From contig JALEGK010000030.1 of the NCBI GenBank assembly GCA_022763105.1, positions 358-64,357 on the forward strand: 64,000 nucleotides of DNA, given 5' to 3'. This stretch comes from Rickettsiales bacterium (GTDB lineage: Bacteria > Pseudomonadota > Alphaproteobacteria > Rickettsiales > UBA3002). A program made the position numbers and the translations under genes. A model generated the notes under the pieces. The model made no database searches. It was not told the origin of the DNA and was given only the letters and a program-made list of their open reading frames with translations. Positions 23,585-60,055 of this stretch are shown here, in pieces; positions within the stretch are counted from its first letter, which is position 1, and every line of letters begins with the position of its first letter.

Positions 23585-24814
23585 TTATTGTTTCATGATG
23601 TCGCCCGCACTCATGCCGGCCACCGAATGTGCTTGTAAAATCGAGCGGCCATACCTGACGGTTGCGGCGGTGAAGACGATGTCGGGATCATCTTGAGCAA
23701 TGGCGCTCATAAGCGCACCACTTTCCATCAAATGATTATCGAGCTGATCAGGCGAGCATTCTTTAGCGACATCTTGTGCTGCACGGCACGGGTTAATGGC
23801 GCGGCGCGTGGTTTCTAAAAAGGTATGCGCAAACCCCATCCCAGGAATGGGCGCTTCTTTGCTATCTAACACGCTGATGCTGTTATTGCCTGCACGGCTT
23901 GGCTGGCCTTGCGTGATGGCATGGTCTTTTATAAAGCGGTTCGCTTGGCTCAGCGATTGTAATTTCTCATCGACATCTTGGCCGGTATTCTGATCATCGG
24001 CACATAGTGGACGCGCATGAAGTTGCTCGGGGCACGCACCAGACTCTACGGCCTTTGCAAAGCCGATCTGATCTGGGCTAGCAGGGCGAAATAAATCACT
24101 TCGATGCTCTTTGATAAAGGCGAGCATCTGATCAAGGCGGCGGGTCGCCTCAGGCGTTGGCGATAGTTCCACATCTTCAAGCAGCAACGCCTCAGATAAA
24201 GGAATACGGAAATTGCCACTGCCATCATTCATCGGGCGCACAGGGCTATGCTCATCGATCTCCTCATCTTCCATGCCTGCGACTAAGTGGGCGGGCACAT
24301 CTTGAGGGCGTGCGACGGCGCCATATTCGTCATATTGAGACGGCACATGATAGCTGCCTTTTGGAAAGTCAATCGGACCGAATGCTAATTGGACAAGCCC
24401 GGCAAAGGCTTGCAAATGGCGCTGATAATCGGGATTGGAAAACAGGTCACGCTCAATCTCTTCGGCGATGCTCTTAAATTCGCTGTAACCATGTTCGGGA
24501 GTGCGCGCTTCAAGCACAGCTCCGATATCATCTAATATCTTGTTGGCAACATACAGCCGTCCAAAATAATTCATCTCCGGCATCGGAGGTTGCGAGGTAA
24601 TCGAAAGTAGCTTTTCCTGATATTGCGCGACCAGTGTTGGGGCCGCACTTGCTAAGCTGACGCGCTGCGTTGACGGGCCATCACTAAGCGCCATACTGCC
24701 AGGCACAGACGTGGTGACTTGTATGTCTTTCATATCATCAGCCAACAGATTCAGCATCATCTGAACATGCTGTGGTTCCATCTCATAGCGTTTTGATCTG
24801 CGTCCTGTAACCAT
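23585..24814 (-). CDS. hypothetical protein, paralog of 24820-26274
   Basis: Shared blocks NLLADD/NLIADD, PDYQRHLQAF/PEYQNHLRAY, YHVPSQY/YHIPEQY, HRSDLFRP/HRDALFMP. Confidence 0.75.
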   Translation of the reverse strand: MVTGRRSKRYEMEPQHVQMMLNLLADDMKDIQVTTSVPGSMALSDGPSTQRVSLASAAPTLVAQYQEKLLSITSQPPMPEMNYFGRLYVANKILDDIGAVLEARTPEHGYSEFKSIAEEIERDLFSNPDYQRHLQAFAGLVQLAFGPIDFPKGSYHVPSQYDEYGAVARPQDVPAHLVAGMEDEEIDEHSPVRPMNDGSGNFRIPLSEALLLEDVELSPTPEATRRLDQMLAFIKEHRSDLFRPASPDQIGFAKAVESGACPEQLHARPLCADDQNTGQDVDEKLQSLSQANRFIKDHAITQGQPSRAGNNSISVLDSKEAPIPGMGFAHTFLETTRRAINPCRAAQDVAKECSPDQLDNHLMESGALMSAIAQDDPDIVFTAATVRYGRSILQAHSVAGMSAGDIMKQ

Positions 24815-24819
24815 AATTC

Positions 24820-26274
24820 CTACTGTTTTATCGGGCCATTGCCTCGCCCCATTCCGAGTGCCGCAGTAGAGCTAATCGCACCGCCATGCGACACACGTGT
24901 TTCACCTAACATAAAATCACCGGACTCCATCTCTAAATCGCGCGTATCATCTGCATTGGCATGTGCTTCGAGTTTTAAGAAGCTTTGTGTCCAAGCACGC
25001 TTGAGTTTAGTGGGGGATAAGCGCGGCTCAAACGCATGCTCCGTCATATCGAGTAAGGTGCGAGAAAACGCAACCGCTGGCATGGCATCATCCGGATTCA
25101 TCATATTGCGAATCCGTTTTCTGCGCCCGCCACGCGCTTCCATTTCTGAGCGCTGCGCCATATCACGCAAGGTTTTTGCACCATTACCAAGCACGGCTAG
25201 TTTCGACTCTACGCCTTTATGTGTGTTATTGTCATGAGTGCTTAAATCATCAAACGGCGCATCCACCAGATCGCGGCGCTCTACATCGATATGCTGAATC
25301 TGGTGCGGTTGTAACGGCATGAAAAGCGCATCGCGATGCGTATCTAAATGATGCATCATGCGCGATAGTCGAATCGATGCTTCGGCAGAAGGGTCAAGCT
25401 TGACGCCTTCAATTTGCATGCGATGCGATAAGGTCAGTGATTCGCCTTCATCCTCAATGTCATGCTCGTCATCATCTAGCTCTTCGCCTGCTTCTTTTTC
25501 ATCTTCAACGGCTGTATCTGGTGTGTGCTCTGCTGCGACGCGATCATCGGAAGCGACTTCTGCATCGGCTAAATCAATATCGGCTGGGTTTTCTGGCTCG
25601 CTATAAATATCTGCTACATCACGATTAGCGGGAGGCATATCTTTAAGCTCAACAGGACGATCTTTAACATCGCTACCGGCAGCATCCATCAGCCCGATAT
25701 CTTTAGGCTGCTCGCCCGGCTCATCTTCAAGAGCGGAATCATCGAAATGACTGAAATCGAAACGCGCATATTGTTCGGGAATATGATAGGTGGAATGAAG
25801 CTCGACCGGCTCAACTGCCAGCTTTACTAATTGCGAGTAAGCGCGCAAATGATTCTGATATTCAGGAGAGTGAAACCATTCGCAATAATCGTCGACGGCT
25901 TTGCGCAAGCTCTGCGCCGTAAAGCCTTCACCTGTTTGCGATTCGAGGAAGAAGACAAAATCATGCCGCATTTTGAAGGAAATAAAATTCCGTGTGAAAT
26001 TACCCGCTTCAGCCAACTCACCCTTATGCATGGCCGAGAAAAATAAACGCGCCACACGGTCACCACAATCAGGGTAGAGTAACTCAATATCATGGGACGA
26101 ATAACGATCCGTAGCCGGGTTATAAGACATGACCGAGATGTGCCCCACATCATCAGCAATCAGATTCAGCACATTTGTTGCCGCCTGCGATGACATCACA
26201 TGCTCATCATGGCCAGTGATCACCGAATCGGTTGGCTGAGTCTGATCTTCATTCTGTTCGTCGTCGTCGGACAT
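24820..26274 (-). CDS. hypothetical acidic protein, paralog of 23585-24814
   Basis: Likely start MSDDDEQ at 26274; carries a longer acidic insertion than its paralog. Confidence 0.75.
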   Translation of the reverse strand: MSDDDEQNEDQTQPTDSVITGHDEHVMSSQAATNVLNLIADDVGHISVMSYNPATDRYSSHDIELLYPDCGDRVARLFFSAMHKGELAEAGNFTRNFISFKMRHDFVFFLESQTGEGFTAQSLRKAVDDYCEWFHSPEYQNHLRAYSQLVKLAVEPVELHSTYHIPEQYARFDFSHFDDSALEDEPGEQPKDIGLMDAAGSDVKDRPVELKDMPPANRDVADIYSEPENPADIDLADAEVASDDRVAAEHTPDTAVEDEKEAGEELDDDEHDIEDEGESLTLSHRMQIEGVKLDPSAEASIRLSRMMHHLDTHRDALFMPLQPHQIQHIDVERRDLVDAPFDDLSTHDNNTHKGVESKLAVLGNGAKTLRDMAQRSEMEARGGRRKRIRNMMNPDDAMPAVAFSRTLLDMTEHAFEPRLSPTKLKRAWTQSFLKLEAHANADDTRDLEMESGDFMLGETRVSHGGAISSTAALGMGRGNGPIKQ

Positions 26275-26328
26275 TTCATCTCCCGCGCGAATTGCACCGC
26301 CTACAGTATATAGATAAGGAGCCGTCAT

Positions 26329-27240
26329 ATGCGTGACAATTCGATGAAAGATGCCGGATTGCGAACCCAGCTTGAACGCATGATAATTAACGATTTTTGC
26401 GGCTTTTTAAGCTATGGCTTCGCGATTTTGAATCCAAACCGCGCTTACCAGCATAATTGGCATATCGAGCTGATTTCTGAGTATTTAAAAGCTATTGAGC
26501 AGGGCCAAATCACGCGCCTTATTATCAATTTACCGCCCCGATCACTCAAATCGACGATGATATCGGTCGCATGGCCCGCATGGTTGCTGGCACATAACCC
26601 CAGCATGCAGATTATGGCGGCAAGCTATAGCCAACAACTCGCCGATAAACATAGCCAGGATTGCCGCATGATCGTGCAATCTGAAGCTTACCAGAGGTGT
26701 TTTTCTGACACCAAACTATGCCGCACACAAAATGAAAAACATAAATGGATGACGAGCAAACGCGGCATGCGACTCGCCACCAGTATCTGGGGGTCAGCCA
26801 CAGGTGAGGGCGGCGATATCCTCATCGCCGATGATGTGATGAACGCGCTGCAAGCGCAAAGCGCAATGGCGAGAGCGAGCATCAATGATTGGTTTGATCA
26901 TACCTTTGCCACACGGCTGAATGACAAAAAGAAAGGCGCGATTATTGTGGTGATGCAACGGCTGCATGAAGACGATACAACGGGGCATTTACTGCAAAAA
27001 GGCGGGTGGGAGCATCTGTGCCTGCCAGCGATGGCCGAGCAAACGCTACGCTATCAGATGAATGGCAAAACATGGACACGCAAACGCGGCAGCCTGCTGC
27101 ATGCCAAACGCGAAAACACCAAGCTGATTGAGCGCGCAAAGACAGAGCTTGGCTCGGCGCATTTTAATGCGCAATACCAACAAAACCCGCTACCACAAGG
27201 CGGTGGCATGATAGAGCTGGATTGGTTTGTTAGGTTTTAA
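26329..27240 (+). CDS. terL: terminase large subunit, N-terminal ATPase half
   Basis: LIINLPPRSLKS (Walker A variant), GEGGDILIADD (Walker B), VMQRLHEDD, FNAQYQQNP; stops at the interdomain linker. Confidence 0.9.
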   Translation: MRDNSMKDAGLRTQLERMIINDFCGFLSYGFAILNPNRAYQHNWHIELISEYLKAIEQGQITRLIINLPPRSLKSTMISVAWPAWLLAHNPSMQIMAASYSQQLADKHSQDCRMIVQSEAYQRCFSDTKLCRTQNEKHKWMTSKRGMRLATSIWGSATGEGGDILIADDVMNALQAQSAMARASINDWFDHTFATRLNDKKKGAIIVVMQRLHEDDTTGHLLQKGGWEHLCLPAMAEQTLRYQMNGKTWTRKRGSLLHAKRENTKLIERAKTELGSAHFNAQYQQNPLPQGGGMIELDWFVRF

Positions 27241-27246
27241 TTGAGC

Positions 27247-27984
27247 TTAGGCGACGCCTTCGCCTGGCCCACCTTTAGGGCGGCGGTCTTCGATATCTGG
27301 TCGCTGCACGCCATCATCCATGCCAGCGAGCTTAATATCAGGATGGCCCAAGTCTTTACCATCAACAGCACTTTGTTTGCCCAAGCCAAAACCAAAACGA
27401 TTAACATCGCCTACACTGCCGTCTTCGAGTTGCTTGAAAAGCTCATCCATTGATTTAATCGTGCCACCACTCGGTGATATGGATATGAAACTTTTTAAAG
27501 TTGGCGGAGTTTCGCCTGGCTTGTAATCCATTTTATGGCCTCGAGCGAGACCGCGCATATATTCTACTGATTGGAAAAGTTGAATGCCGCCACGGTCAAA
27601 TTGCTGATATTCTTTTTCGATCTGATCCCTTAACATTCTAAAGCCTAATCTGTATTCACCAGCATTCTCACGCCAGTCATTTGAGTTAGCTTCTAACGCT
27701 GGTAAATTTTCAAGGCGGCGACCATAGCCATTCCATACTTGTTCGCGCATACTGTCGATGACGGTTTGAAAGCCGCCTCGGTAATCTGGTGGAGAGGTTT
27801 TATCTGCTTCGGTTTTTACCAAACGACGAAAGGCATTGAGATCATCATTGCTCATCGTACGGAACATGTCCGATATTAACCCGTTCACGCGTTCGACAGC
27901 CTGTCTGGCATCTTTATAATGCGCATAATTATGCCTGTCCTTAGAGGCGAGTGATTGATAGGTCATTCCCGATAAATCGGCCAT
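27247..27984 (-). CDS. hypothetical protein inserted between the two terL halves
   Basis: 245 aa, AGGAG RBS, ends RRPKGGPGEGVA. Confidence 0.75.
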   Translation of the reverse strand: MADLSGMTYQSLASKDRHNYAHYKDARQAVERVNGLISDMFRTMSNDDLNAFRRLVKTEADKTSPPDYRGGFQTVIDSMREQVWNGYGRRLENLPALEANSNDWRENAGEYRLGFRMLRDQIEKEYQQFDRGGIQLFQSVEYMRGLARGHKMDYKPGETPPTLKSFISISPSGGTIKSMDELFKQLEDGSVGDVNRFGFGLGKQSAVDGKDLGHPDIKLAGMDDGVQRPDIEDRRPKGGPGEGVA

Positions 27985-28048
27985 CGCGCTAACTCCTACT
28001 TTCTTATTTTTCTGCCCTTACAGCTTAACATCAAGAGGTTAACACTTT

Positions 28049-28540
28049 ATGAAAATTACCCAATCATGGGACACGGCAATTAAGTCGGGTTCTCAGCATG
28101 ATAGAAGCGTCTGCGCGACCTTTGAAAAGGCCGAAGGTGCACCGCATAAACTCATCGATATATGGGCGGCGCGCGTGGAATATCCGGCTCTAAAACGCCA
28201 AGTGATCGAGTTGGCCGCTAAATTTCAGCCGCATGCCATTTTGATCGAAGATAAGGCATCGGGCCAATCGCTCATTCAGGATCTGCGGCGCGATACCGAT
28301 TTGCCGATTCTACCCATCATGCCCAAAGGCGATAAAATCACGCGCGTGGCACAAATCACCCCAATGATAGAAGCAGGATTGATCGCGCTGCCTAAGCACG
28401 CCCATTGGCTTGCAGATTTTGAAGCGGAGATAGCAGGGTTCCCGAATGCATCACACGATGATCAGGTCGATGCGTTCTCGCAATATCTGAATTGGGTGCG
28501 TGCGCAAAGCTGGCAACAAACGAAGATTCGTACGCTCTAA
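28049..28540 (+). CDS. terL: terminase large subunit, C-terminal nuclease half
   Basis: TQSWDTA, ILIEDKASGQSLIQDL, DKITR, FPNASHDDQVDAFSQ; own ATG with GAGG RBS. Confidence 0.9.
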   Translation: MKITQSWDTAIKSGSQHDRSVCATFEKAEGAPHKLIDIWAARVEYPALKRQVIELAAKFQPHAILIEDKASGQSLIQDLRRDTDLPILPIMPKGDKITRVAQITPMIEAGLIALPKHAHWLADFEAEIAGFPNASHDDQVDAFSQYLNWVRAQSWQQTKIRTL

Positions 28541-29268
28541 CCCATCGGTGGCAGATCGCTTCCTGCCTCTCGTTTTGGAGGCGGGTTAGGTAGGGTGCCG
28601 TGCCATTCGCTGACCGCTATTTCAGCCATATCGCACATATGGGCAGCAAATTGACACAGCGCCTGACCATTAGGACTCATCGACTTAAGCTTGCCTTGCG
28701 AATTGAGGGCGCTACGGATTTCGTCGGCGCGTCCTTCAATCTGTTCACGCAATAAGCCAATTGCGGCGCTCGCTTCTTCATATTGTCCTGCTGCTGGAGC
28801 TTCCTCATCACTATTGTCGTTTGCTGCCGCGCTAAGAGAGTTAAAAAAGCGCGCCTGATTGACAGCCTTACGGTATGCTTGCGTTTCGTTATGTACAGCG
28901 GTTAGCGCGCGCTCCCACATGCCGTCATTGAGCGTAAAATAAGTGTCATCAGCGGTAATCGCCTCGGCAGAATAATTATCACCACTCAGATCAGCAGCAA
29001 TGTTCATGAGATGCTTGCTGGAATCCAGATAATGCTTCACCACCATCCAATGCGCATCATCGACATTGGCGACTTCGGGTAAACATTCAACCATCGCGCG
29101 CTCATCGGTCAATGCTTCTTGCACGTTGAATTCGGCTTTCTTAGGTGGGTTGCTTAGCACTTCGATAATCTCTGGTGCGGGGCGACGTTCTGACCATTGC
29201 GGCCCATCATAAAGCCATGAGAAGATCGTATCGATTGGGGATTTAATATATTGCTGACCCATGATCAC
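28537..29268 (-). CDS. hypothetical protein, paralog of 29265-29999
   Basis: Shared SAEAIT..D.YF, ALN.Q..LKSMSP, SEWH...P.PPK. Confidence 0.75.
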   Translation of the reverse strand: MIMGQQYIKSPIDTIFSWLYDGPQWSERRPAPEIIEVLSNPPKKAEFNVQEALTDERAMVECLPEVANVDDAHWMVVKHYLDSSKHLMNIAADLSGDNYSAEAITADDTYFTLNDGMWERALTAVHNETQAYRKAVNQARFFNSLSAAANDNSDEEAPAAGQYEEASAAIGLLREQIEGRADEIRSALNSQGKLKSMSPNGQALCQFAAHMCDMAEIAVSEWHGTLPNPPPKREAGSDLPPMG

Positions 29269-29999
29269 CCTCCACCAAGCGGCGATCTGTCTGGCAGTTC
29301 TTTAAGATTCTTAGGAGGAACTGGCGGCATTTTGGAATGCCATTCAGAGGCGACAATCTTCGCCTGATCTAGAAAGGTGTTGGCATATTCAAACATGGCA
29401 GCCGATGTTGGGCTCATCGATTTGAGGTGGTTCTGTGCATTGAGCGCATCCTGAATCTCTGACTGGCGCGCTGCGATATTATGCTCTAACGCATCGAATG
29501 CCAGATTGCATGATTCATATTGCTGCTCCGGTGTAATCGATTCATCGACGACACCCTGAACACCAATCGCCGTATTGCCATATAGCGCGCGGTTAACGCT
29601 CATGCGGTAATATTGCGCTTCGGTATGGGTTTGTCGCAAATTATCGCGCAGCACATCGTCATTTCCCAAAAAATACACATCGGAATTGGTGATCGCCTCT
29701 GCGGAGTTCGGGTCTTTGGCATAAGCCGCAGCAATCTCCATTAGCCCAGTGCTTGCCTCAATATGATGTTCAATCACCTTGGCAAAGGCTTCATCTTCAT
29801 TCTGTGCGACGCTTAATTCGTCTATTCGTCGATGCTCATTCTCACGCGCATCACTCACCGCTGTAATCAGAAATTGACCGCTTGGACGGCTCAAATGACT
29901 ACGGATTTCTGTCGGCGTGCGCTGGTGCCGCAATTGCGGATCAACATGCTCCCAAGGGAACAATGTTTGAATAGGGTCTGTGATAAAGCGGTTCACCAT
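29265..29999 (-). CDS. hypothetical protein, paralog of 28537-29268
   Basis: 244 aa vs 243 aa, colinear similarity; ends DRSPLGGG. Confidence 0.75.
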   Translation of the reverse strand: MVNRFITDPIQTLFPWEHVDPQLRHQRTPTEIRSHLSRPSGQFLITAVSDARENEHRRIDELSVAQNEDEAFAKVIEHHIEASTGLMEIAAAYAKDPNSAEAITNSDVYFLGNDDVLRDNLRQTHTEAQYYRMSVNRALYGNTAIGVQGVVDESITPEQQYESCNLAFDALEHNIAARQSEIQDALNAQNHLKSMSPTSAAMFEYANTFLDQAKIVASEWHSKMPPVPPKNLKELPDRSPLGGG

Positions 30000-30162
30000 C
30001 CTTTTAGAACTAGCGCTAAAATGTTGAAAAAGCGTTAAGTTGAACGCTTTTCGTCATGTTTTTGTCATCGAAACTTCACAACATAGCCCCGTATCCCTTG
30101 CTATACTGGAACTATGGCTATCCATAGCTTCGGCTATGGCGTGGCGTATGAATAACAAATGA

Positions 30163-31131
30163 ATGGACGAAATGACCGAAGAAAAAACACGGTTGGAATT
30201 GCAAAAAGAGCGCTATGAACGCGCGCTGGAGCTGTCTGAAGAAAAAGACGAGCTGCCCGCAATTGCGACCGAAGATTATCATGGCCCCTCTGAAGCAGTC
30301 ACCGCGATGGTACGCGGTTCGATTCTGGGTGCGGTCGGGTATTTCGGCGGTAGGGCTTTCGGTAATGCACTCTATCCGGGCGCTGCAAGAGCGAGCGGTG
30401 GACATGATTTAACCCGCAAGCTGTTCCGCTATACCGGTGCGGGTATCTTGGGTGTTATGGGCGTGCATAGCGGGTCTAAGCAGGTGCGCGATACACGTAG
30501 CCAAACACGACGCATGCAGACGACCATCACCAAAATGTACAAAAAGAACGAAGCCCTGAAAGAAGAGCTAAAAGCACAGCTTAAAGGTCAGGGGCGATTA
30601 AACGCATCGGATGTTGATGCGGTTGAAGAAAACCAGATGAATAAGGTCGTGGAAGAGGTGGCTGAAGAAGTACAAGTGCCGCTACCAGACGAGAAGCAAG
30701 TAGTAGAAGCCACCGAAGCTGCTGAAGCGGTGGATGCAGATGAAATCACTGACCTGAACGAAGATATGGCGGAAGCCATGGCCGACCAAGATGGCACGGA
30801 TAAAAGCGAAGCTGCGGGCCAAGCCGATGACGGGCTGGTCGATGACGAGGTAGCGCAGCCGGAGGAGCAAGGACTAGATGAGCAAGGGCTGGATGAGCCA
30901 GAGCCAGAAGAGCAAGAATCTATAGATGTGGCCGATTTAGAGGAAGAAGAGCGCGGCTTTGATCATGACGATGAAGAGCAACGCAAATCAGCAAAAGGAT
31001 CGGGCAAGAAAGACCCGCAAATTGCGAAAGATAATGACGCAGAATTAGGCGATGACCCTGAAACGCAAATCAGCATGCAGGGTATGCAGCACGAAGTCGT
31101 AGGACAGCACGAGCAACAGCTCGGCGCATAA
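30163..31131 (+). CDS. hypothetical protein: Gly-rich hydrophobic helices, coiled coil, acidic tail
   Basis: GSILGAVGYFGG and GAGILGVMG segments; ends PETQISMQGMQHEVVGQHEQQLGA. Confidence 0.75.
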   Translation: MDEMTEEKTRLELQKERYERALELSEEKDELPAIATEDYHGPSEAVTAMVRGSILGAVGYFGGRAFGNALYPGAARASGGHDLTRKLFRYTGAGILGVMGVHSGSKQVRDTRSQTRRMQTTITKMYKKNEALKEELKAQLKGQGRLNASDVDAVEENQMNKVVEEVAEEVQVPLPDEKQVVEATEAAEAVDADEITDLNEDMAEAMADQDGTDKSEAAGQADDGLVDDEVAQPEEQGLDEQGLDEPEPEEQESIDVADLEEEERGFDHDDEEQRKSAKGSGKKDPQIAKDNDAELGDDPETQISMQGMQHEVVGQHEQQLGA

Positions 31132-32997: not shown

Positions 32998-34146
32998 ATG
33001 CGAAGCTTTATTGCGCGTCTTTTTGCGACCAAATCCACGACCACTGATCTTCTTCAACCGGGCTATGCCACAAGCTATATGCATGCACCCGGCAAACCCG
33101 TTTGGATGCGCCGCGACTATGCGCGCTTCGCCCAAGAAGCATACGCACGTAATGTGATTGCGCATCGCTGCATCGATTTAATTGCTAAAGGTGTCGCAAG
33201 CGTGAAGCTGAGCATCAAAGGCGAAGATGCGCGACTCTCCACGCTACTGGCGCGCCCAAACCCGCGCGCAGATTACGCAAGCTTCATGCGCGATGTTATC
33301 AGCCATCAAATGATTGCGGGTAATGCGTATATTCATGCGGTTGGCCCAAAAGGCGAAGCACCGCTAGAGCTACACACATTACGCCCAGACCGCGTGGCCG
33401 TGATTGCGGGTGCAGGTGGCGTGCCACAAGGCTACCAATATAAAGTTGGCGAAAAAGTGATGCAGTTCCCCGTTGATCCGATTACGGGTGCGTCACGCAT
33501 ATTGCACCTGAAACAATTCCACCCGCTTGATGATTGGTATGGGCTATCGCCTGTAGAGGCCGCGGCCTACGCCATCGACCAGCATAATCAGTCAGCCGCG
33601 TGGAACCAGTCTTTGCTACAACATGGCGCGCGCCCATCTGGTGCGTTGGTTGTAAACCGCAAGGAAGGGGCAGGGCAGTTATCTGAGGAGCAATATTACC
33701 GACTCAAGCAACAAATGGACGAGCAATTCAGCGGCACCGATAATGCCGGACGCCCGCTGCTTCTAGAAGGCGGCTTAGAATGGCGCGAGATGAGCCATAG
33801 CCCAAAAGATATGGATTTCATCGAGGCGAAACATTCCGCTGCGCGTGAAATCGCACTGGCATTCGGTGTGCCACCGCAATTACTCGGCATTCCGGGTGAT
33901 AACACCTATGCGAACCTGGCCGAAGCGCGCCTTGCGCTGTGGGAGCAGATTATCATGCCGATGACCGAAAGCGTCTGCGGTGCGCTGAATTACTGGCTGC
34001 TACCGAATTTCGGTAATCAGCTAGAGTTGAATCCGAACTATGACGCGATTCCCGCACTCGCCCCAAGACGTGAGAAAATGTGGGAACGCATCAATAATGC
34101 GACCTTCTTAAGCGACGAAGAAAAACGCGAGAAGCTAGGGTTCTAG
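32998..34146 (+). CDS. phage portal protein, HK97 family (GTA g3)
   Basis: LLARPNP, GNAY, LRPDRV, HPLDDWYGLSP, GARPSG, NAGRPLLLEGGLEW, AREIALAFGVPPQLLGIPGDNTYAN. Confidence 0.95.
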   Translation: MRSFIARLFATKSTTTDLLQPGYATSYMHAPGKPVWMRRDYARFAQEAYARNVIAHRCIDLIAKGVASVKLSIKGEDARLSTLLARPNPRADYASFMRDVISHQMIAGNAYIHAVGPKGEAPLELHTLRPDRVAVIAGAGGVPQGYQYKVGEKVMQFPVDPITGASRILHLKQFHPLDDWYGLSPVEAAAYAIDQHNQSAAWNQSLLQHGARPSGALVVNRKEGAGQLSEEQYYRLKQQMDEQFSGTDNAGRPLLLEGGLEWREMSHSPKDMDFIEAKHSAAREIALAFGVPPQLLGIPGDNTYANLAEARLALWEQIIMPMTESVCGALNYWLLPNFGNQLELNPNYDAIPALAPRREKMWERINNATFLSDEEKREKLGF

Positions 34147-35225: not shown

Positions 35226-35428
35226 GCGCTCAAACACACGATATGATCTGCGGATTCACATTCATTGCGCTACATGACAGACGCCATGCGGGCGCCAAAC
35301 GCACCGACGCTGAACAAGCAGAACTCGATGAGTGTATCGCTCGTGCAAAACGTGCAGGGATAGACGATGATCGCATCGCGTCACTCTTTGATGTGGAATT
35401 ATCTGATATAATGGCGGTGATGATCTAA
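35222..35428 (+). CDS. small hypothetical protein
   Basis: 68 aa, ATGA overlap with the upstream gene. Confidence 0.4.
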   Translation: MSAQTHDMICGFTFIALHDRRHAGAKRTDAEQAELDECIARAKRAGIDDDRIASLFDVELSDIMAVMI

Positions 35429-36471
35429 TTATCGTTGGCCGCGCTACCTTTGACATGATCAATCATAGAACGCATTGGCTCGCGTACATCGCGCGCTGGC
35501 TTATCGCCACCAATCGATAAAACAGATGCCGGTTTTTGTGCCTCGCCCGCACCCACTAAATTACGCTTAAGCACAATGCTCTGCTCATTGCCCAGTGGAT
35601 ACGTCTCGGAGCGTTCGATTTGCACGGTGTCATCGCGCTTGGTGGTGCTGATATTGCGCACACCGCACAAATCGCAATCATTGATAAAGGCCGTGCCATC
35701 AGTCATTTTAACGCTTTGCATATCGACATCCTCAAAGGTACAATGATCAAAGGTGCAAGCATCAAAATGCAGATGCGACATATCGACCCCAGTAAATTTG
35801 CAGTCTTTGAATGTGCAGTCGTGAAAGACCGGCTCATCCAATGTAATATCAGGTTGATTGATGATCCCCATATTTTCGAATAAGCAATGATCGAACGTAC
35901 TATCTATTACATCGCAATCTATAATATTGCCAAACAGGTCCGAGTTTTTGAACTTGGCACTAGTCAGTGAGCCAAGTAACAAATTACCGCCAAATAAACC
36001 GTCTTCGCATCGCAGATTGTAGATATCGGTGGCCTTGCCTTGTAATCTTAATGCGCAACCATTGGCCTCTAGTTGTTTAAATTCTGACAGGCTGGTATTC
36101 CATAAATACTCTTTACGTTTCTCTAATGGCGGAAGGTGATCAACACTCAGATTGATCAGATCAATATCTGTGCGAGTTTGACTAACCCCTTCTTTGAGGG
36201 TTTCCATAAATTCACGTTGTTGATCTGCGCTCGCCTGATCAAACATGAGCGGCACATGGCGCGCTTCGCCGCGCTGTTGTAAATGATTAGCAGCAATGGC
36301 AAAGTCGCGTTGAGACTGAACCAATGCAGGCGTGATCATCGGGTCGGTATACGACTTGAGCAGCATGGCTTTCGCGGCATGCTCAGCCGCATAGGGAATC
36401 GCATAACGATCACAATATTCTTTAAAGGCAGGCGTATCTGCACGCAGAGGGTGGACATCATCATCACTCAT
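35425..36471 (-). CDS. pentapeptide repeat protein
   Basis: FHDCTFKDCKFTGVDMSHLHFDACTFDHCTFEDVDM; paralog of 36468-37577 (TTKRDD / TTKRDN). Confidence 0.85.
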   Translation of the reverse strand: MSDDDVHPLRADTPAFKEYCDRYAIPYAAEHAAKAMLLKSYTDPMITPALVQSQRDFAIAANHLQQRGEARHVPLMFDQASADQQREFMETLKEGVSQTRTDIDLINLSVDHLPPLEKRKEYLWNTSLSEFKQLEANGCALRLQGKATDIYNLRCEDGLFGGNLLLGSLTSAKFKNSDLFGNIIDCDVIDSTFDHCLFENMGIINQPDITLDEPVFHDCTFKDCKFTGVDMSHLHFDACTFDHCTFEDVDMQSVKMTDGTAFINDCDLCGVRNISTTKRDDTVQIERSETYPLGNEQSIVLKRNLVGAGEAQKPASVLSIGGDKPARDVREPMRSMIDHVKGSAANDN

Positions 36472-37625: not shown

Positions 37626-38186
37626 ATGCACCCAGATTTTTATGAACGTAAAGTCGCGCGCACCATGCGCGAGAATAAAAAACATACCTTCGAGCTGGAG
37701 CTGAAATCGATAGATGAGCAGGGGCGCTTTGCAGGCTATGCCAGCGTGTTTGATATCATCGATAATCAGCGCGATGTGGTGGTAAAAGGCGCCTTCCTAG
37801 AGACGCTACAAGACCGAATTTCAGAGATTAAACTGCTGTGGCAACACCAACTGGACACGCCCATTGGCTATTTCACCAACATGTTTGAAGATGCACGCGG
37901 ATTATACGTAGAAGGTCAGCTGATGCTGAGCTTAGGAAAAGCCCGCGAAGCGCTCGATTTGATGCAAAGTGGGGTGGTAAAAGGGCTATCAATCGGCTTT
38001 ACACCCATCCGCTATTATACCGACCCGGATACGGGCGTGCGCTACCTGACCAAAGTGGCACTTTATGAGGTGAGCTTGGTCACCATGCCCGCTAATGAGC
38101 AAAGCCGCGTGAGTGTGGTAAAAGCAAGTGATTATAGTGGGTTAAGCGCCGCTTTCGACCGTGCGATGCAGCAATTATGCTGCTGA
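37626..38186 (+). CDS. HK97 family prohead protease (GTA g4)
   Basis: FAGYASVF, KLLWQH, PIG, EDARGLYVEG, GLSIGF, EVSLVTMPA. Confidence 0.95.
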   Translation: MHPDFYERKVARTMRENKKHTFELELKSIDEQGRFAGYASVFDIIDNQRDVVVKGAFLETLQDRISEIKLLWQHQLDTPIGYFTNMFEDARGLYVEGQLMLSLGKAREALDLMQSGVVKGLSIGFTPIRYYTDPDTGVRYLTKVALYEVSLVTMPANEQSRVSVVKASDYSGLSAAFDRAMQQLCC

Positions 38187-39070: not shown

Positions 39071-39130
39071 ATGGCTAAAAATCCCCTCCATTTTATCTCA
39101 ATCCAACCAACCAAAGTAAGGAACACGCTT

Positions 39131-40333
39131 ATGAGTATCGAAGCAATTACCGACAAGGTGCATTCACTCGGCTCTGCTTGGGAGCAATTCAAGCAGGTCA
39201 ATGATGCGCGCCTAAAAGATTTAGAGCGCAAAGGCCATGCCGACCCGCTTTACACCGAACATCTGACCAAAATTTCTGCGGCGCTAGACAACCAAAAATC
39301 GCGCCTAGACCGCATTGAAACTGCCCATGCCCGCCCAGGTGTTGAGCTGGCTGGCTCACCTGTCATGGGTGAGGTCGCATCTGAATATAAATCAGCCTTC
39401 CGCAATTATTTGCGCAAAGGCATGGATGCAGGCCTAGAGGCAATCAGCACCAAAGCATTGTCTGTTGGCACGGACGCTGACGGTGGTTATTTGGTGACCC
39501 CACAAATCTCTGAAGAGATTGTCCGCATCGTGCATGAGCGTTCACCAATGCGTGAGCTGGCATCGATTGAAACCATCTCTACCGATTCGCTGGATGTGAT
39601 CGAAGATACCGAGCAGCCGGGCGCTGCTTGGGTCGCTGAGACAGCGTCTCGCTCAGACACCACCACCCATCAGATCAACAAAAACAGCATTCCAACCTTT
39701 GAGATGTATGCGCAGCCAAAAGCGACGCAAAAACTGATCGATGATGCATCGATTGATGTCGAAGCGTGGCTGGCAGAAAAAGTTGGCGAGAAAGTCGCAG
39801 ACCTAGAAGCCACCGCATTTATCTCTGGTAACGGTACGTCAGCCCCTAAAGGGATTCTGAGCTACACCGCAGGCACCAGTTTTGGCGAAATCGAGCAGAT
39901 CGATTCCGGCACCGATGGTGTGGTAACCGCAGACAGTCTTGTTCAGCTATACTACGCACTGAAAGATGATTATGCGAAAAACGCGACCTTCCTAATGAAC
40001 CGTTCGGTCATTCAGGCGGTGCGTCTGCTGAAAGAATCAACCACCGATCAGTATCTATGGCAGCCAGGTCTAGCCGCTGGTACGCCAGACACCCTCATGG
40101 GTGTACCGGTGAAAGCAGCAGCCGATATGCCAGTTGCAGCGACTGACTCACTATCTGTCGCGGTCGGTGATTTCAAACGTGCCTACAAGATTGTAGACCG
40201 TGTCGGCATCCGCGTATTGCGTGACCCATTCACCGATAAACCTTACGTGAAATTCTACACCACCAAGCGCGTTGGTGGTGAAGTGGTGAACACTGAAGCC
40301 GTTAAAATTCTAAAACTGGCTTCTGGTTCGTAA
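39131..40333 (+). CDS. major capsid protein, HK97 family (GTA g5)
   Basis: DGGYLV, SPMRELA, MYAQPKATQKLIDDA, AFISGNG..PKG, LRDPFTDKPYVKFYTTKRVGG; start MSIEAI at 39131. Confidence 0.96.
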   Translation: MSIEAITDKVHSLGSAWEQFKQVNDARLKDLERKGHADPLYTEHLTKISAALDNQKSRLDRIETAHARPGVELAGSPVMGEVASEYKSAFRNYLRKGMDAGLEAISTKALSVGTDADGGYLVTPQISEEIVRIVHERSPMRELASIETISTDSLDVIEDTEQPGAAWVAETASRSDTTTHQINKNSIPTFEMYAQPKATQKLIDDASIDVEAWLAEKVGEKVADLEATAFISGNGTSAPKGILSYTAGTSFGEIEQIDSGTDGVVTADSLVQLYYALKDDYAKNATFLMNRSVIQAVRLLKESTTDQYLWQPGLAAGTPDTLMGVPVKAAADMPVAATDSLSVAVGDFKRAYKIVDRVGIRVLRDPFTDKPYVKFYTTKRVGGEVVNTEAVKILKLASGS

Positions 40334-40521: not shown

Positions 40522-40585
40522 CCTAATGTTTTTTTAATCACTGCTGTGCTAATCCTATATGTATAAAAGGAATAGGAGCAGACTC

Positions 40586-42865: not shown

Positions 42866-43051
42866 ATGCCCTGTTGGTTGCAGATGCAAAGCAGTCTGTT
42901 TGGCTGCAATGCACATCTGCGCCTGCATTTCAGGCGGGCAGGTAAGCTCTATTGGGTGGATGATGCCGAGGCGCAGTTACTACTACGTGCGAACGATGCG
43001 ATACGGATCACCCCCGCGTTTTTTGACCCCCCACACAGATCAGGAGAATAG
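42866..43051 (+). CDS. small phage-like protein preceding the head-tail connector
   Basis: MQSSLFG...AGKLYWVDDAEAQLLLRANDA resembles small proteins found after HK97-type capsids; stop lies 1 nt before the g6 ATG. Confidence 0.45.
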   Translation: MPCWLQMQSSLFGCNAHLRLHFRRAGKLYWVDDAEAQLLLRANDAIRITPAFFDPPHRSGE

Positions 43052-43052
43052 C

Positions 43053-43598
43053 ATGAGCGAATACCCAACCCGCGGGCTGCACCGCGTGACAGACCCAAGC
43101 GTCGAGCCGCTAAGCGTTAGTGAAGCGAAGCTCTTCTTGCGCATTGATACGAGCGATGATGATAGCCTGATTGGCGATTTCATTACCGCCGCACGCGAGC
43201 TAGCCGAGGCCATGACCGGACGCTCGCTCATTACGCAAAGCTGGCGCGTGACCTATGAGAATGCCGCACCGAACCCGATGCCATTGCCGCAAGGCCCAAT
43301 CCTGTCGATCACATCGGTGAAGACGATAGATGAAAGCGCCAGTGAAACCACGATCAGCAGTGATGATTATGAGCTGAATGCAAGCAAGACCGAATTGTTA
43401 AGCGATACCGGCCTGTGCGCACACCGCATTGAGGTAACGTACCAAGCGGGGTACGGCCCAAGCGCCAGCGATGTGCCTGCCGATATCCGCCAAGCGATGC
43501 TGATGCATATCGCGCATATCTATGGCCACCGTGATGAGATGAACCCACCCCAAACCAGCCTGATTATCTATCAGCAATATCGTGGGGTGCGCGTATGA
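43053..43598 (+). CDS. head-tail connector / adaptor (GTA g6, phiE125 gp8-like)
   Basis: EPLSVSEAKLFLRID, AARELAEAMTGRSLITQSW, AGYG..VPADIRQAML; AGGAG RBS. Confidence 0.9.
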   Translation: MSEYPTRGLHRVTDPSVEPLSVSEAKLFLRIDTSDDDSLIGDFITAARELAEAMTGRSLITQSWRVTYENAAPNPMPLPQGPILSITSVKTIDESASETTISSDDYELNASKTELLSDTGLCAHRIEVTYQAGYGPSASDVPADIRQAMLMHIAHIYGHRDEMNPPQTSLIIYQQYRGVRV

Positions 43599-43960
43599 GT
43601 ATCCGAGGCAGAAACACTGGCATTGCAGGTGAGCTAAGCGCGCGCTTGCGCCACCGTATTACGATTGAACAGCCAAACGATACCGCCGATGGCGGCGGCG
43701 GCGTCACACGAGGCTGGACGACAGTAGCAACCGTGTGGGCAGAGATTATCCCAACACGTGGCGGAGCAGAGCAGGGCTTAGGCGAAGCAGCCATACAAGC
43801 GCTACACACACACCGCATCACCATTCGCTATCGCGACGATGTCAGCACCGATATGCGCATCGGTTTCGATGGTCGATATTTCAATATTCGCAGTATCACC
43901 AATGTAGAGGAAGCCAAGGTCGTACTGGAGCTAAATGTTGAAGAAGGAGGCGCCGTATGA
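43595..43960 (+). CDS. head closure protein (GTA g7, SPP1 gp16-like)
   Basis: LRHRITIEQP..DGGGG..W..VATVWA, HRITIRYR, MRI, FNIRSI. Confidence 0.92.
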   Translation: MSIRGRNTGIAGELSARLRHRITIEQPNDTADGGGGVTRGWTTVATVWAEIIPTRGGAEQGLGEAAIQALHTHRITIRYRDDVSTDMRIGFDGRYFNIRSITNVEEAKVVLELNVEEGGAV

Positions 43961-44367
43961 GCGATTGGATTTTATGGCCTGCCCAAAAGGCAATTTATTC
44001 GCATTTAAGCAGCGATTCTGCCCTAAATGCGCTGGTGACGGGCACCTATGACCACGTGCCGCCAGATGCTGCCTTCCCATACGTTTATTTAGGCCAGGGA
44101 ACGGCGGAAGATCAGAGTGTGATGGGCCGTCAACGCAGTGTGATAGAGCTGCCTATTTTCGTCTATAGTCGCGAGGGCGGTAAGCGCGAAACACAGAAGA
44201 TTTTTGCGCGACTCTATTGGCTGCTCCATGACCAAACACTCAGTGGCGATGGCATTTCGCTGTACCATATCGAACACCGCACGGCAGTCATACGATTACT
44301 CGATGACAGACAAACCTATCAGGGTGAAATGCGGTTTCAGATTTGGTGTGAAGTGAGTGTGGCGTAA
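43957..44367 (+). CDS. DUF3168 tail terminator/completion protein (GTA g8)
   Basis: QKAIYSHL, YDHVP...FPYVYLG, SREGG; ATGA overlap with g7. Confidence 0.85.
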   Translation: MSDWILWPAQKAIYSHLSSDSALNALVTGTYDHVPPDAAFPYVYLGQGTAEDQSVMGRQRSVIELPIFVYSREGGKRETQKIFARLYWLLHDQTLSGDGISLYHIEHRTAVIRLLDDRQTYQGEMRFQIWCEVSVA

Positions 44368-48478: not shown

Positions 48479-48501
48479 TGTTTCACGTGCTTATGTTGTA
48501 C

Positions 48502-49764: not shown

Positions 49765-50041
49765 TGTCTGCCCTTTAAGGTTTTTTTCGCTTTCAATTTC
49801 GTTCGGGATACAATGATCCCTTTCTACTGTACTAATAGTACCAATTTTACCCCCAATTTTGTGTGAACCTTATGTGACAATATCCTTGTTTTTCAGTGGT
49901 TATCTTCACGCAAACGTCACACATACTGCCCAATAGCTCTGATAAACTGCTAAGTGCATCAATGTGGGTTGGTGCGCGTGCGCTATGGGGAATAAACCCG
50001 ATGGCGAAACTAGAAAAAACGGGAGTATTGCAACCGCTTAT

Positions 50042-52168: not shown

Positions 52169-52211
52169 AGACGACAACCAAGGCAAAGCACACGGGAGAT
52201 AGCCAAGCCAC

Positions 52212-57372: not shown

Positions 57373-57972
57373 ATGGCGTTTCACGACGTTCAGTTTCCCA
57401 CTGACATCAGCTATGGCTCGACTGGCGGGCCGGGCTTTTCTACCGATATTGTCATCAATCATGGTGGCTATGAACAGCGCAACAGTAATTGGGCGCAAGC
57501 GCGCGGGCGATATAATGTCGCGCATGGCATTAAAACCCAAAACCAACTGAATGAGCTGGTCGCATTCTTCCGCGCACGCAAAGGTCGCGCCCATAGTTTT
57601 CGTTTTAAAGATTGGACAGACTATGAGGCCAACGGTGTCATCATCGGCACTGGCGATGGCAGCACCGTCGAATTTCAGCTGATCAAACCCTACACCAGCG
57701 GCGCAACGACAATCAGCCGCACCATCAGCTTACCTGTCGCGGGAGCGTTGAGTCTTTATCTGGATGGCTCGATCACCCCAAGCGGCTACAGCATAGATAA
57801 TAGCACCGGATTGATCACCTTCGATTCCGCACCCGGATCAGGCGTGGTGATCACCGCAGATTACGAATTTGATCTGCCCGCACGATTCGATACCGACCAG
57901 CTCTCTGCCCGCATCGAGAATTATGGCGTGCGTAGCTGGTTAGATATCCCAATCATCGAAGTGCGGAGGTAG
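57373..57972 (+). CDS. DUF2460/TIGR02217 distal tail protein (GTA g12)
   Basis: FHDVQFP.DISYGSTGGP, EQRN..W, FFRARKGR..FRFKDW.D, FDLPARFDTD. Confidence 0.93.
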   Translation: MAFHDVQFPTDISYGSTGGPGFSTDIVINHGGYEQRNSNWAQARGRYNVAHGIKTQNQLNELVAFFRARKGRAHSFRFKDWTDYEANGVIIGTGDGSTVEFQLIKPYTSGATTISRTISLPVAGALSLYLDGSITPSGYSIDNSTGLITFDSAPGSGVVITADYEFDLPARFDTDQLSARIENYGVRSWLDIPIIEVRR

Positions 57973-57974
57973 CC

Positions 57975-58823
57975 ATGCATACACTCACCAGCGCATTCAA
58001 CGCGCATTTGCAAACCGATGTGACGACACTTGCAACTTGCTGGAAGATCACGCGGCGCGATAGCACAATCATGGGCTTCACCGATCATGACACCGATATT
58101 GAGTTAAGTGGCGTCACCTATCTGGCATCATCCGGATTCACGCCCACAGCCGTGCAGAACTCATCCGCACTAAATGTCGATAATCTAGACGTACAAGGGC
58201 TGCTCGATTCGGCGGCCATCACCGAAGAGGATTTGCTCGCCGGTGTGTATGACTTCGCCGAAGTGGAATGCTTTGTCCTCAATTACGAAGCGCCTGATGA
58301 TGGCACGCTACCGCTGCGCACCGGATGGATTGGCGAGGTAACAGTCAATCAAGGCGAGTTCATCGCCGAGATTCGTGGACTCACCCAACGTCTGGGCCAA
58401 ACCATCGGCCAGCTTTATTCGCCCACTTGCCGTGCGCAGTTAGGTGATAGCAGATGCGGCGTGACGCTAGGTAGCTTTACCGTAACCGGTACGGTCACAG
58501 CCAGCACAGACCGCAACCAACTAACCGATAGCGGCCGCTCAGAAGATGACGGCTATTTTGCTTACGGCGTGGTGAGCTTTACATCCGGTGCGAATACCGG
58601 CTTAAGCATGGAAGTAAAACAATTCAGCAATGGTAGTTTTATTCTGATGCAGGCCATGCCGCACACGATAGAGGCAGGCGACACCTATAGCGCGATAGCA
58701 GGCTGCGATAAACGCATCGCCACCTGCGCCAGTGTTTTTAGTAATGCTGCCAACTTCCGTGGCGAGCCGCATGTGCCCGGAACCGACCGGATTTTAGAGA
58801 CTTCGACCACACGTAACGAGTAA
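57975..58823 (+). CDS. DUF2163/TIGR02218 baseplate hub protein (GTA g13)
   Basis: CWKITRRD..GFTDHD, CRAQLGDSRC, GCDKR..TC..F.N..NFRGEPHVPG. Confidence 0.93.
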   Translation: MHTLTSAFNAHLQTDVTTLATCWKITRRDSTIMGFTDHDTDIELSGVTYLASSGFTPTAVQNSSALNVDNLDVQGLLDSAAITEEDLLAGVYDFAEVECFVLNYEAPDDGTLPLRTGWIGEVTVNQGEFIAEIRGLTQRLGQTIGQLYSPTCRAQLGDSRCGVTLGSFTVTGTVTASTDRNQLTDSGRSEDDGYFAYGVVSFTSGANTGLSMEVKQFSNGSFILMQAMPHTIEAGDTYSAIAGCDKRIATCASVFSNAANFRGEPHVPGTDRILETSTTRNE

Positions 58824-58911
58824 AGCAGCCCCAAAGCCCACATTTAAGTCATTCTGCTTGCTTGTGCGCCGCAAAAGGCGTACATCCTGAAAGGAGAAAA
58901 ACGAGCAATAT

Positions 58912-59085
58912 ATGGCTTTTATTCTGAATATGCTGGGCGGGATGATGTCAGTGCTAACACTGCGCTCATCTGGCGTGTACCGATACCCCTACCGCAACAG
59001 CATGGAAGGATTGGGCGGCGACTTCAAACGTGTCGCAAGCGATATCAGCTATATCATTGCCGAGGATGATGAAGACGAAGACTGA
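58912..59085 (+). CDS. small hypothetical protein upstream of DUF2335
   Basis: Hand-translated 57 aa MAFILNMLGG...EGLGGDFKRVASDI...EDED; 3-nt gap to DUF2335; below the ORF-track cutoff. Confidence 0.55.
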   Translation: MAFILNMLGGMMSVLTLRSSGVYRYPYRNSMEGLGGDFKRVASDISYIIAEDDEDED

Positions 59086-59088
59086 CGC

Positions 59089-59586
59089 ATGAATACGCAG
59101 AACAAACCACAAGGCAATAAAGGCAACAACCCGCGACGCGGTAACAATAACCGTACCGAATCCGCAGGTGGCCGCCAAAACCGCAACCGCCGCCCGCGCA
59201 AAAAGGCGGAGGTCTTGCCAGATCCAGAAGTGCTGGAAGCGTATGATTACGTTGTCGAAGGCTCTGCAAAAGAAATCATCGAAATGTTCAAGACCGAACA
59301 AGCGCACCGACACCAATGGGAACGACGCGCCTTGCGTATTCACATGATGAGCACGGTCATCGGCCAAGTGCTTGGTTTCCTCATCGCGATTGCGATTTTT
59401 GTCTCCGCGGCCGTTATCGGCATTCACGGCGACTCAACCATTGGCGCATTTATCTGGGTCTTTGGCATGGCGATCATCACCATGGCCGCACTGGTCTGGT
59501 GGTACGCAAAAAGCCTGGGCCAACGCCCACTCTTTGCCCGCCCCGCGCTACGTTCATCTTTCCGCGCGGAAAAAGATAAGAGCTAA
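59089..59586 (+). CDS. DUF2335 family membrane protein
   Basis: LPDPEVLEAYDYVVEGSAKEIIEMFKTEQAHR followed by two TM helices. Confidence 0.85.
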   Translation: MNTQNKPQGNKGNNPRRGNNNRTESAGGRQNRNRRPRKKAEVLPDPEVLEAYDYVVEGSAKEIIEMFKTEQAHRHQWERRALRIHMMSTVIGQVLGFLIAIAIFVSAAVIGIHGDSTIGAFIWVFGMAIITMAALVWWYAKSLGQRPLFARPALRSSFRAEKDKS

Positions 59587-59614
59587 TCATAACCCTTTAT
59601 ATCCGAGGTATATC

Positions 59615-60055
59615 ATGCAACAGCCATGCATTGTCGCGTGCGCGCGCAGCTATTTGGGCACGCCATTCAAACATCAAGGCCGAAGCAAAGACCGAGGCGT
59701 CGATTGCTTGGGGCTGCTGGTGGGCATTGCGCGTGATTGCGAATTGAAATCCGGCGAGCAACGACTTGCTGATCGCGATGATCGCGGCTACGGACACATT
59801 CCGCCTTACTCGCGATTACATCAAGGGCTCTGCGAAAACCTAACCGAGATTTCAAAAGAAAATATGAGGGCAGGGGATGTGGTATTGCTACGCCATGATG
59901 GCAACCCACAGCATCTGGGAATCATTGCGCAATTGGACGATGGCGTTTGGTCCATCATCCACGCCTATGCTAAAGCACGCAAGGTGGTCGAACACAGGCT
60001 GGATGATGGTTGGTATGCGCGAATCGCGCATATATACCGCTTCTGTGCGTCATAG
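59615..60055 (+). CDS. NlpC/P60 cell-wall peptidase (GTA g14)
   Basis: ARSYLGTPFKHQGR, GVDCLGL, GDVVL, HLGI, IIHAY; start MQQP at 59615 with GAGG RBS. Confidence 0.92.
   Translation: MQQPCIVACARSYLGTPFKHQGRSKDRGVDCLGLLVGIARDCELKSGEQRLADRDDRGYGHIPPYSRLHQGLCENLTEISKENMRAGDVVLLRHDGNPQHLGIIAQLDDGVWSIIHAYAKARKVVEHRLDDGWYARIAHIYRFCAS

Follow-up and report, generated by a model that had tools for sequence, protein, structure and literature searches.

The question raised by the locus described here is whether a large terminase subunit (TerL) that is encoded in two pieces represents a broken gene or a working two-chain enzyme. The locus lies in a 64,000-nucleotide stretch of contig JALEGK010000030.1 from an uncultured marine Rickettsiales bacterium (assembly GCA_022763105.1; genome G000 below), and this stretch, at its full length, is called the window. 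Within a gene cluster that resembles that for the gene transfer agent of Rhodobacter capsulatus (RcGTA), the ATPase (motor) half and the RNase H-like nuclease half of TerL occupy two open reading frames (ORFs), 808 bp apart and in different frames, instead of forming one polypeptide with a hinge; an antisense ORF fills most of the spacer between them (Table 1). Taken together, the data make it probable that fission has separated the ATPase domain from the nuclease domain of this RcGTA-like cluster's TerL at their hinge, and that the family keeps the enzyme as two separately translated genes, the products of which reassemble non-covalently.

Position of the break

A preliminary description of the locus had proposed a functional TerL split at the linker, with both halves retaining their catalytic motifs and the nuclease half restarting from a ribosome-binding site and ATG of its own. 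The three-ORF layout was reproduced in the ORF listing with exactly the same coordinates, ends and MKITQSWDTA start, and none of the three ORFs of the window contains an internal stop. The ribosome-binding site is also present, as a Shine-Dalgarno-like AAGAGG located 10 nt before the ATG. A further candidate signal, a sigma-70-like promoter match situated 130 nt 5' of the nuclease half, is a pattern match to the consensus only; for the separately regulated nuclease dosage that the preliminary description had considered possible, it is the only candidate signal.

In the coordinates of phrog_38 (terminase large subunit, 760 positions), the break sits at the ATPase/nuclease junction: the ATPase half covers positions 271-535 (E 5.4e-65), the nuclease half covers positions 548-705 (E 6.9e-29), and the hinge stretch between the two matches, about 12 profile positions long, is absent. 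The nuclease half is additionally recognized by Pfam Terminase_6C (1.1e-16) and, over its cut-off, by NCBIfam TIGR01630 (77.8 bits). An intact TerL paralogue found elsewhere in the genome (G000:C73; 479 aa, 48% identical) reads GGGMIKTDWFQCYDQDALPDFDHIVQSWDTA across the same point, which indicates that about ten hinge residues are missing from the window pair. The other features of a TerL are in place, namely the N-terminal ASCE (additional strand, catalytic glutamate) ATPase with what we take to be the Walker A, Walker B and coupling motifs, and the acidic residues of the C-terminal RNase H-like nuclease. The sequence profiles of both halves gave no match to PDB chains at E<=0.01; the catalytic residues are therefore not mappable onto a solved structure by sequence.

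Distribution of the split in the family and the order

Both halves were searched in 40 relatives, and the nuclease half in each of the family's 40 species genomes. Outside genus g8, a stand-alone nuclease half was found in every one of the 15 matched family genomes (12 genera plus that of the window; frames of 165-283 aa), and one further family genome, 77% complete, gave no TerL match. Genus g8 is mixed: its 21 matched genomes comprise 15 with a fused TerL (frames of 474-736 aa), 4 with a split one and 2 in which the frame is cut short. Uniform fusion in the close relatives, which had been named at the outset as the finding that would speak against a two-subunit enzyme, is therefore not what the family presents, 15 of 15 genomes outside g8 and 4 of 21 within it being split.

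The junction was read in 19 split family genomes from 13 genera. Both halves co-occur in all 19, without internal stops, and in all 19 the nuclease half is opened by an in-frame ATG 2-12 codons before QSWDT. The ATPase half stops directly after WFxRF/Y in ten of these genomes; in the remaining nine it continues for a few extra residues that resemble the hinge of the fused relatives (e.g., RFDLE..., RFTLE...). The distance from the stop of the ATPase half to the start of the nuclease half, in 16 genomes, takes the values -32, -11, -4, -1, 4, 228, 346, 468, 553, 808, 839, 1340, 1454, 1683, 1719 and 15,002 bp. About 1.4-1.5 kb separate the ATPase half from the nuclease-half match in G041 and G044, G008 has its halves on two contigs, and in G005 the nuclease half lies downstream of the portal, protease and capsid genes. 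The same split with different inserts, which the preliminary description had suggested looking for, is thus found in 19 genomes, and the content of the spacer varies among them.

The start signals of the nuclease half are independent of the ATPase half where the spacer is long: an AGG/GAGG-type element precedes the ATG by 5-11 nt in 11 of 11 long-spacer cases, and an AAGG-TTA... motif before this ATG is common to G000, G002, G003, G004 and G011. The short-spacer junctions (ATGA in G017, TAATG in G022, GGAGG with an ATG inside the end of the ATPase half in G014, and also TAA-n-ATGATG) read as standard forms for translationally coupled neighbours.

Matches were obtained in 14 of 16 other families, 13 with TerL fused at the hinge and 1 with a multi-stop remnant. 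When the sampling was widened to 251 genomes of the order, six short frames were inspected among the matches listed, beyond which there are 33 further matches. Three of the six (G252, G156 and G199), considered as hinge splits, proved to be fused at the hinge, their frames being short through a contig end or a break elsewhere, and the frame of G059 is likewise ended by a contig end. The junction of G101 could be assigned neither to the split nor to the fused class. The sixth, G108 (L086 1426-3583), belongs to another family of the same order and has a hinge-split TerL, the halves of which are about 800 bp apart; its ATPase half ends in ...WLRYYVL-stop and its nuclease half starts with M-R-I-QSWDMA, a changed motif. 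Fused TerL dominates in the other families of the order, and the exceptions among the inspected junctions are G108 (split) and G101 (unclear). In addition, 1140 protein clusters of 89-286 aa, out of 5.8 billion searched, match the nuclease half at E<=1e-10; the best 120 of these 1140 measure 161-239 aa with at least 91% query coverage, and many of them lie on long contigs. By this count, stand-alone nuclease halves are common.

Predicted association of the two halves

The 17 split ATPase halves and 17 split nuclease halves that were aligned have a mean column identity of 65% and 64%, respectively. P69, P70, R71, K74, S75, D168, D169, M209-H213, D216, W299, F300 and R302 are invariant in 17/17 ATPase halves, and with them the motifs PPRxxKS, DD and MQRLHxxD, which in the window read PPRSLKS (Walker A-like), DD (Walker B-like) and MQRLHEDD. 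The nuclease halves have D8, E67, D68, H136, D137, D138 and D141 in common without exception (17/17). The catalytic motifs that had been described as intact in the window are therefore preserved in every aligned split orthologue.

A model of the complex, which had been proposed as a check, reached a score of 0.84 for the two halves, compared with 0.09 for the best of three controls; the same mark is reached by 58 of 80 solved complexes and by 2 of 110 mismatched pairs. The model runs agree in at least 92% of the contacts, with a partner pLDDT (predicted local distance difference test) of at least 83. The confident interface involves residues 292-303 of the ATPase half only, facing residues 32, 34, 97-116 and 125-133 of the nuclease half. 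This result supports binding of the halves to each other and does not show it: fused terminases have solved structures, and the model may just reproduce the intramolecular packing of a fused TerL. The geometry suggests a tether, in which the break falls just after a strand that structurally belongs to the nuclease domain, the motor half carrying the plug for the cutter half.

The course of events proposed here would start with fission of an RcGTA-like TerL gene at the hinge that joins the ATPase domain to the nuclease domain. The ATPase half would be translated from its own start, and the nuclease half from its own Shine-Dalgarno element and ATG; since the halves have an antisense gene between them, the latter is probably transcribed separately. 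Non-covalent reassembly would then occur as the ATPase half, by its conserved C-terminal strand (…WFxRF), docks on the nuclease domain, and this would yield a two-chain terminase for packaging and cutting the DNA of the particle that the cluster would produce.

Several points weigh against this proposal. The ATPase half matches Pfam Terminase_6N with only 17.1 bits, the curated cut-off being 22. Synonymous divergence (dS) is saturated in every pair that includes the window genes, and the corresponding ratios of nonsynonymous to synonymous divergence (dN/dS), 0.11-0.31, are rough. All genomes are metagenome-assembled, and some of the short-spacer "splits" could be indel errors or cases of recoding read-through. 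Unrelated genes stretch the cluster over >37 kb, the major tail family PF06199 was searched in the genome and not found, and the particle machinery could be incomplete. Finally, a two-chain motor runs against the best-studied case, since the ATPase and nuclease domains of T4 gp17 separated without the hinge keep their own activities and lose DNA translocation, according to a review (PMC9958956, section 4.2.3).

The last point bears on the strongest of the alternatives, according to which both halves are functional without binding each other stably; the packaging motor would then consist of the ATPase half alone, and the nuclease half would be a free headful cutter or a protein with another role. 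There is a precedent for such a motor in gp16 of phage phi29, a packaging ATPase without a nuclease domain. The separation of the halves by 15 kb or on different contigs suggests little need for co-translation, and the T4 hinge result argues that a domain-motion mechanism would not survive the split (PMC9958956). Against this, the last 12 residues of the ATPase half are conserved, with W299, F300 and R302 invariant; these same 12 residues make up the whole confident interface of the model, the score of which is far from that of its controls; and the halves accompany each other in all 19 split genomes. Two independent proteins are therefore considered unlikely, and reassembly of the two chains remains the preferred explanation.

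Absence of repair signatures

It is very unlikely that the split is mended at expression into one polypeptide, by a self-splicing intron, a split intein, DNA excision, or ribosomal frameshifting or bypassing. Such routes have precedents in related genes: group I introns in phage terL genes are spliced back (PMC12880540), a split-intein-fractured terminase has been described (PMC2677866), and short non-coding interruptions in ter genes of Streptomyces phages have been proposed as bypassing sites (PMC10732093). In five members of the family, moreover, the two halves differ in frame and are no more than 32 nt apart.

An Rfam scan of positions 25500-30500 at E<=1 gave no match, and a terL interrupted by a group I or group II intron was rejected on this ground, no intron RNA being detected in the spacer. 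A fractured gene of the split-intein type was rejected as well: alignment of the halves with the fused paralogue and with fused relatives continues as far as the break and shows no extra residues, which leaves no room for intein parts of the 33-122 residues reported for fractured genes (PMC2677866). Repeats around the spacer are short, none exceeding 28 nt (71% identity), and include no pair of the excision type, and no recombinase gene was found at the spacer. In addition, the spacer gene is antisense, every nuclease half has its own ATG, preceded in the 11 long-spacer cases by a Shine-Dalgarno-like element, and separations of 15 kb or onto two contigs rule out splicing or bypassing in those genomes.

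Selection on both halves

Less probable still is decay, with the terminase as a pseudogene inside a prophage or GTA remnant that is degenerating. Many unrelated genes interrupt the cluster, the tail family PF06199 was not found as noted above, and a second, intact TerL of 479 aa is encoded elsewhere in the genome, all of which would speak for decay. The substitution patterns, however, indicate purifying selection on both halves. In G012|G019, the only split pair with usable dS (1.2 and 1.0), dN/dS is 0.064 for the ATPase half and 0.047 for the nuclease half, similar to the values of the fused pair G007|G013 (0.065 and 0.091). By the method of Nei and Gojobori (NG86), 29 of 36 ratios were computable, with a range of 0.047-0.306. 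Between the window and a related strain in metagenome run X3, all seven differences in the nuclease half are at third codon positions and five of them are synonymous, the antisense ORF differs by four synonymous and two non-synonymous changes, and the ATPase half differs in one codon (V301 to G); the contigs of this strain are of low depth, which makes all of these counts weak evidence.

Together with the invariant catalytic residues and the lack of internal stops in 19 split genomes of 13 genera, these values mean that the decay reading is already contradicted. The preliminary description had likewise favoured function over decay and had recommended dN/dS for each half; its view is borne out by the shared split in 19 genomes, the purifying selection, the invariant motifs, the separate starts and the intactness of the halves even at a distance of 15 kb or on different contigs.

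The split arrangement is not an assembly artefact. The runs that hold the stretch are seawater and coral metagenomes. A contig of the possible source run covers the whole stretch, run X2 from the same study bridges the right junction with an identical sequence (27988-28253), and related-strain contigs of X3, a coral metagenome from a different study, bridge both junctions (27191-27412 with 8 differences; 28016-28169 with 4 differences), which speaks against the objection raised earlier, that reads might fail to span the junctions. A contig mis-join or assembly chimera as the explanation has a negligible probability, since, for all that the genome is a metagenome assembly in 81 contigs, both junctions are bridged by contigs from another study and relatives display the same architecture.

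Spacer occupants

The spacer has a GC content of 0.46, compared with 0.50 in the ATPase half. Its 245-aa antisense ORF gave no Pfam, PHROG or NCBIfam match, only a self-match among 1.84 billion representatives, no usable ESM Atlas match (with a low recognition value), and no homologue in the 32 related loci searched. Wherever a long spacer contains an ORF, this gene runs antisense, and the spacer genes of the different genomes are mostly unrelated to one another (BLASTP, 1e-3). A GH108-like spacer protein is common to G012, G019 and G044, from two genera; G041 has another GH108-like protein (1.6e-7) and G004 a glucosaminidase (2.1e-24), while the other spacer ORFs, including that of the window, have no Pfam match. 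The preliminary description had attributed the split to the opposite-strand gene. The gene is indeed present, and it does not appear to be the conserved cause, because it has no homologue anywhere in the searches and the relatives hold other genes or nothing at the site; the comparison points to a local, replaceable spacer occupant that is not part of the enzyme.

Several minor features of the spacers were also noted. Peptidoglycan-hydrolase-like antisense genes occur in five of them (L050 in G004, L056 in G012, L059 in G019, L079 in G041 and L080 in G044), the GH108-like matches ranging from 1.6e-7 down to 2e-3, and these genes may be lysis genes tied to the particle cluster. In G019 (L059 3021-4642) the GH108-like gene is present as two overlapping ORFs of 208 and 332 aa, and as a single ORF of 523 aa in G012. 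A search with the GH108-like insert protein of G044 in G000, G017, G018, G020 and G024 gave no match; it had no positive control and shows little. In five genomes of four genera (G001, G004, G011, G012 and G019; loci L047, L050, L055, L056 and L059), the stop of the antisense ORF overlaps the TAG stop of the ATPase half, and these ORFs are mutually unrelated except for the G012/G019 pair.

TerL phylogeny and the history of the hinge

In the TerL tree, the family forms one clade (support 94/94), and the window falls inside a subclade of seven genera (99/98) that is split throughout. The minimum number of state changes on the tree is 6, with G041 and G044 included. G044, which is split by a 1.4-kb insert, is sister to the fused G024 (100/98). 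A topology in which the seven fused g8 rows are held together is rejected in the approximately unbiased test (p-AU 0.0001), this group having been picked after the tree was seen. The root and the direction of change were not inferred and many forks are weak; fission and re-fusion are therefore indistinguishable. Whichever the direction, the tree indicates that the hinge has changed state repeatedly.

These observations allow a broader, tentative reading, to which somewhat less than an even chance is given: the hinge may be a tolerated fission and fusion point and at the same time an insertion hotspot, with at least six switches between the one-chain and the two-chain form, antisense genes, several of them similar to cell-wall hydrolases, moving in and out, and a two-chain form that works through the ATPase-half strand plugging into the nuclease domain. 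If this is true, the covalent hinge would be dispensable for viral-type DNA packaging, and motor and cutter could differ in their expression level.

Comparison with known systems and significance

The closest counterpart is the fused TerL of RcGTA-like and HK97-like systems (Terminase_6N plus Terminase_6C), named g2 in RcGTA, which has the same domains, motifs and cluster context. The TerL described here differs from it in being encoded by two genes with separate starts, in the loss of about ten hinge residues, and in a spacer that accepts genes.

To our knowledge, bacteria have no spliceosomal splicing, and this sets the locus apart from an otherwise similar viral case. In herpesvirus UL15, opposite-strand genes also interrupt the terminase gene and their content varies by lineage, UL16 and UL17 lying in the UL15 intron; in contrast to the two proteins expected here, the two exons of UL15 yield one protein by spliceosomal splicing (PMC3079670). 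The intron-interrupted terL of phages such as the Jug phages resembles the present gene in lying in pieces with other genes between them; there, RNA splicing restores one ORF and the inserts carry homing endonucleases (PMC12880540), whereas the insert genes here are antisense and mutually unrelated, each half has its own start, and no intron was detected. The split-intein fractured genes, which include a gp17-like terminase, have in common with it one locus broken in two and a free-standing gene in between; their intein halves ligate the protein, unlike the halves here, which end without extra residues (PMC2677866). The domain-separation experiments on T4 gp17 were made with a cut at the same ATPase/nuclease hinge; the separated T4 domains lost translocation, while in the present family the separated form is kept under selection (PMC9958956). 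In a survey of GTAs in protist endosymbionts, terminases were placed away from the main cluster, and the word "split" does not occur in its text (PMC9254644). Literature searches, in which supplements were outside the scope, did not turn up any account of a GTA terminase encoded by two genes.

In one view of the packaging motor, the ATPase ring does the work. The contrasting models, such as the T4 electrostatic model, invoke the nuclease domain and the hinge in translocation (PMC3012670, PMC9958956). A hinge-split terminase that is under selection and able to revert would be a ready-made test system for the role of nuclease domain and hinge. For the biology of GTAs, the locus shows that a domesticated particle cluster can come apart and take in genes of host or foreign origin with its core enzyme still under selection. 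Annotators of such genomes should not label stand-alone terminase proteins of about 163 and about 300 aa as partial genes or pseudogenes.

Cluster context and neighbouring genes

Both TerL halves belong to an RcGTA-like head-tail cluster on the plus strand, which extends over at least 26.3-64 kb of the window (>37 kb). The order TerL, portal, S78 protease, HK97 capsid, adaptor, head closure and tail terminator is that of RcGTA-like clusters, on one strand, and the distal-tail set is also represented (DUF2460, Gp84_N/BR0599 hub, NlpC/P60 and GTA_TIM/Phage-tail_3, which we take to be GTA signatures), the Phage-tail_3 match being on another contig of the genome. A control search with DUF2460 gave a match in Caulobacter only. 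Apart from TerL, the rest of the cluster, from portal, protease, capsid, adaptor, head closure and tail terminator to DUF2460, hub, NlpC/P60 and GTA_TIM, is intact. With respect to vertical inheritance, a TerL match is present in 36 of the 40 family genomes, and genera g8, g11 and g13 show conservation of the flanking genes. RcGTA-type clusters are compact, about 15 kb in length and without unrelated genes. The present one is not compact: it includes many interspersed genes, among them pentapeptide proteins, a short-chain dehydrogenase (SDR) and ORFs without relatives, most of them on the opposite strand.

Table 1. Features of the split terminase and of the surrounding cluster, in window coordinates
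Feature	Position	Strand	Length	Remarks
TerL ATPase (motor) half	26329..27240	+	303 aa	ends GGMIELDWFVRF-stop; phrog_38, motifs
ATPase-half C-terminal tail, predicted docking strand	27202..27237	+		residues 292-303, GGMIELDWFVRF
Spacer between TerL halves	27241..28048		808 bp	
Antisense ORFan X, lineage-specific spacer occupant	27247..27984	-	245 aa	
Sigma-70-like promoter match upstream of nuclease half	27893..27920	+		TCGACA-16-TATAAT, 11/12 consensus matches
Shine-Dalgarno-like AAGAGG of nuclease half	28033..28038	+		10 nt upstream of ATG
TerL nuclease (RNase H-like) half	28049..28540	+	163 aa	starts MKITQSWDTA; Terminase_6C, TIGR01630, phrog_38
Portal protein	32998..34146	+		Phage_portal 1.3e-77
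Prohead protease	37626..38186	+		Peptidase_S78 1.8e-32
HK97-type major capsid protein	39071..40333	+		Phage_capsid 1.4e-80
Head-tail adaptor, head closure, tail terminator	42900..44367	+		phrog_442, phrog_25, phrog_176; TIGR02215, TIGR01563
RcGTA-type distal tail genes, whole block	57373..60055	+		family matches
DUF2460	57373..57972	+		distal tail
Hub, Gp84_N plus BR0599	57975..58823	+		distal tail
NlpC/P60	59372..60055	+		distal tail
GTA_TIM-domain protein, runs off window	62389..63999	+		PF13547 5.9e-36

The split terminase is flanked on both sides by tandem paralogue pairs on the minus strand, one at 23585-26328 (409 and 502 aa) and one at 28537-29999 (243 and 244 aa, 37% identical); neither pair has a Pfam or PHROG match. 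Two tandem pentapeptide-repeat proteins are encoded antisense between portal and protease (35425-37577, minus strand), and two such proteins are likewise encoded antisense between portal and protease in G005 (L051 3863-7283, minus strand). The other interspersed genes comprise a weak M48-like peptidase match (32043-52), the SDR (40559-41521), a protein with a SUEL-lectin domain (45757-46224) and several large ORFs without a family match (46418-57311).

The intact TerL paralogue G000:C73 (L002 464-3857) has as neighbours small-terminase-sized, ParB-like/methyltransferase-like and serine-recombinase-like ORFs, named by eye from their translations, and this locus is probably a prophage or another element. 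Outside the cluster, the window encodes a protein of 548 aa with 13 stretches of RTX calcium-binding repeats (11296-12942, plus strand), and the cluster of G005 encloses an RTX/serralysin-C-like protein.

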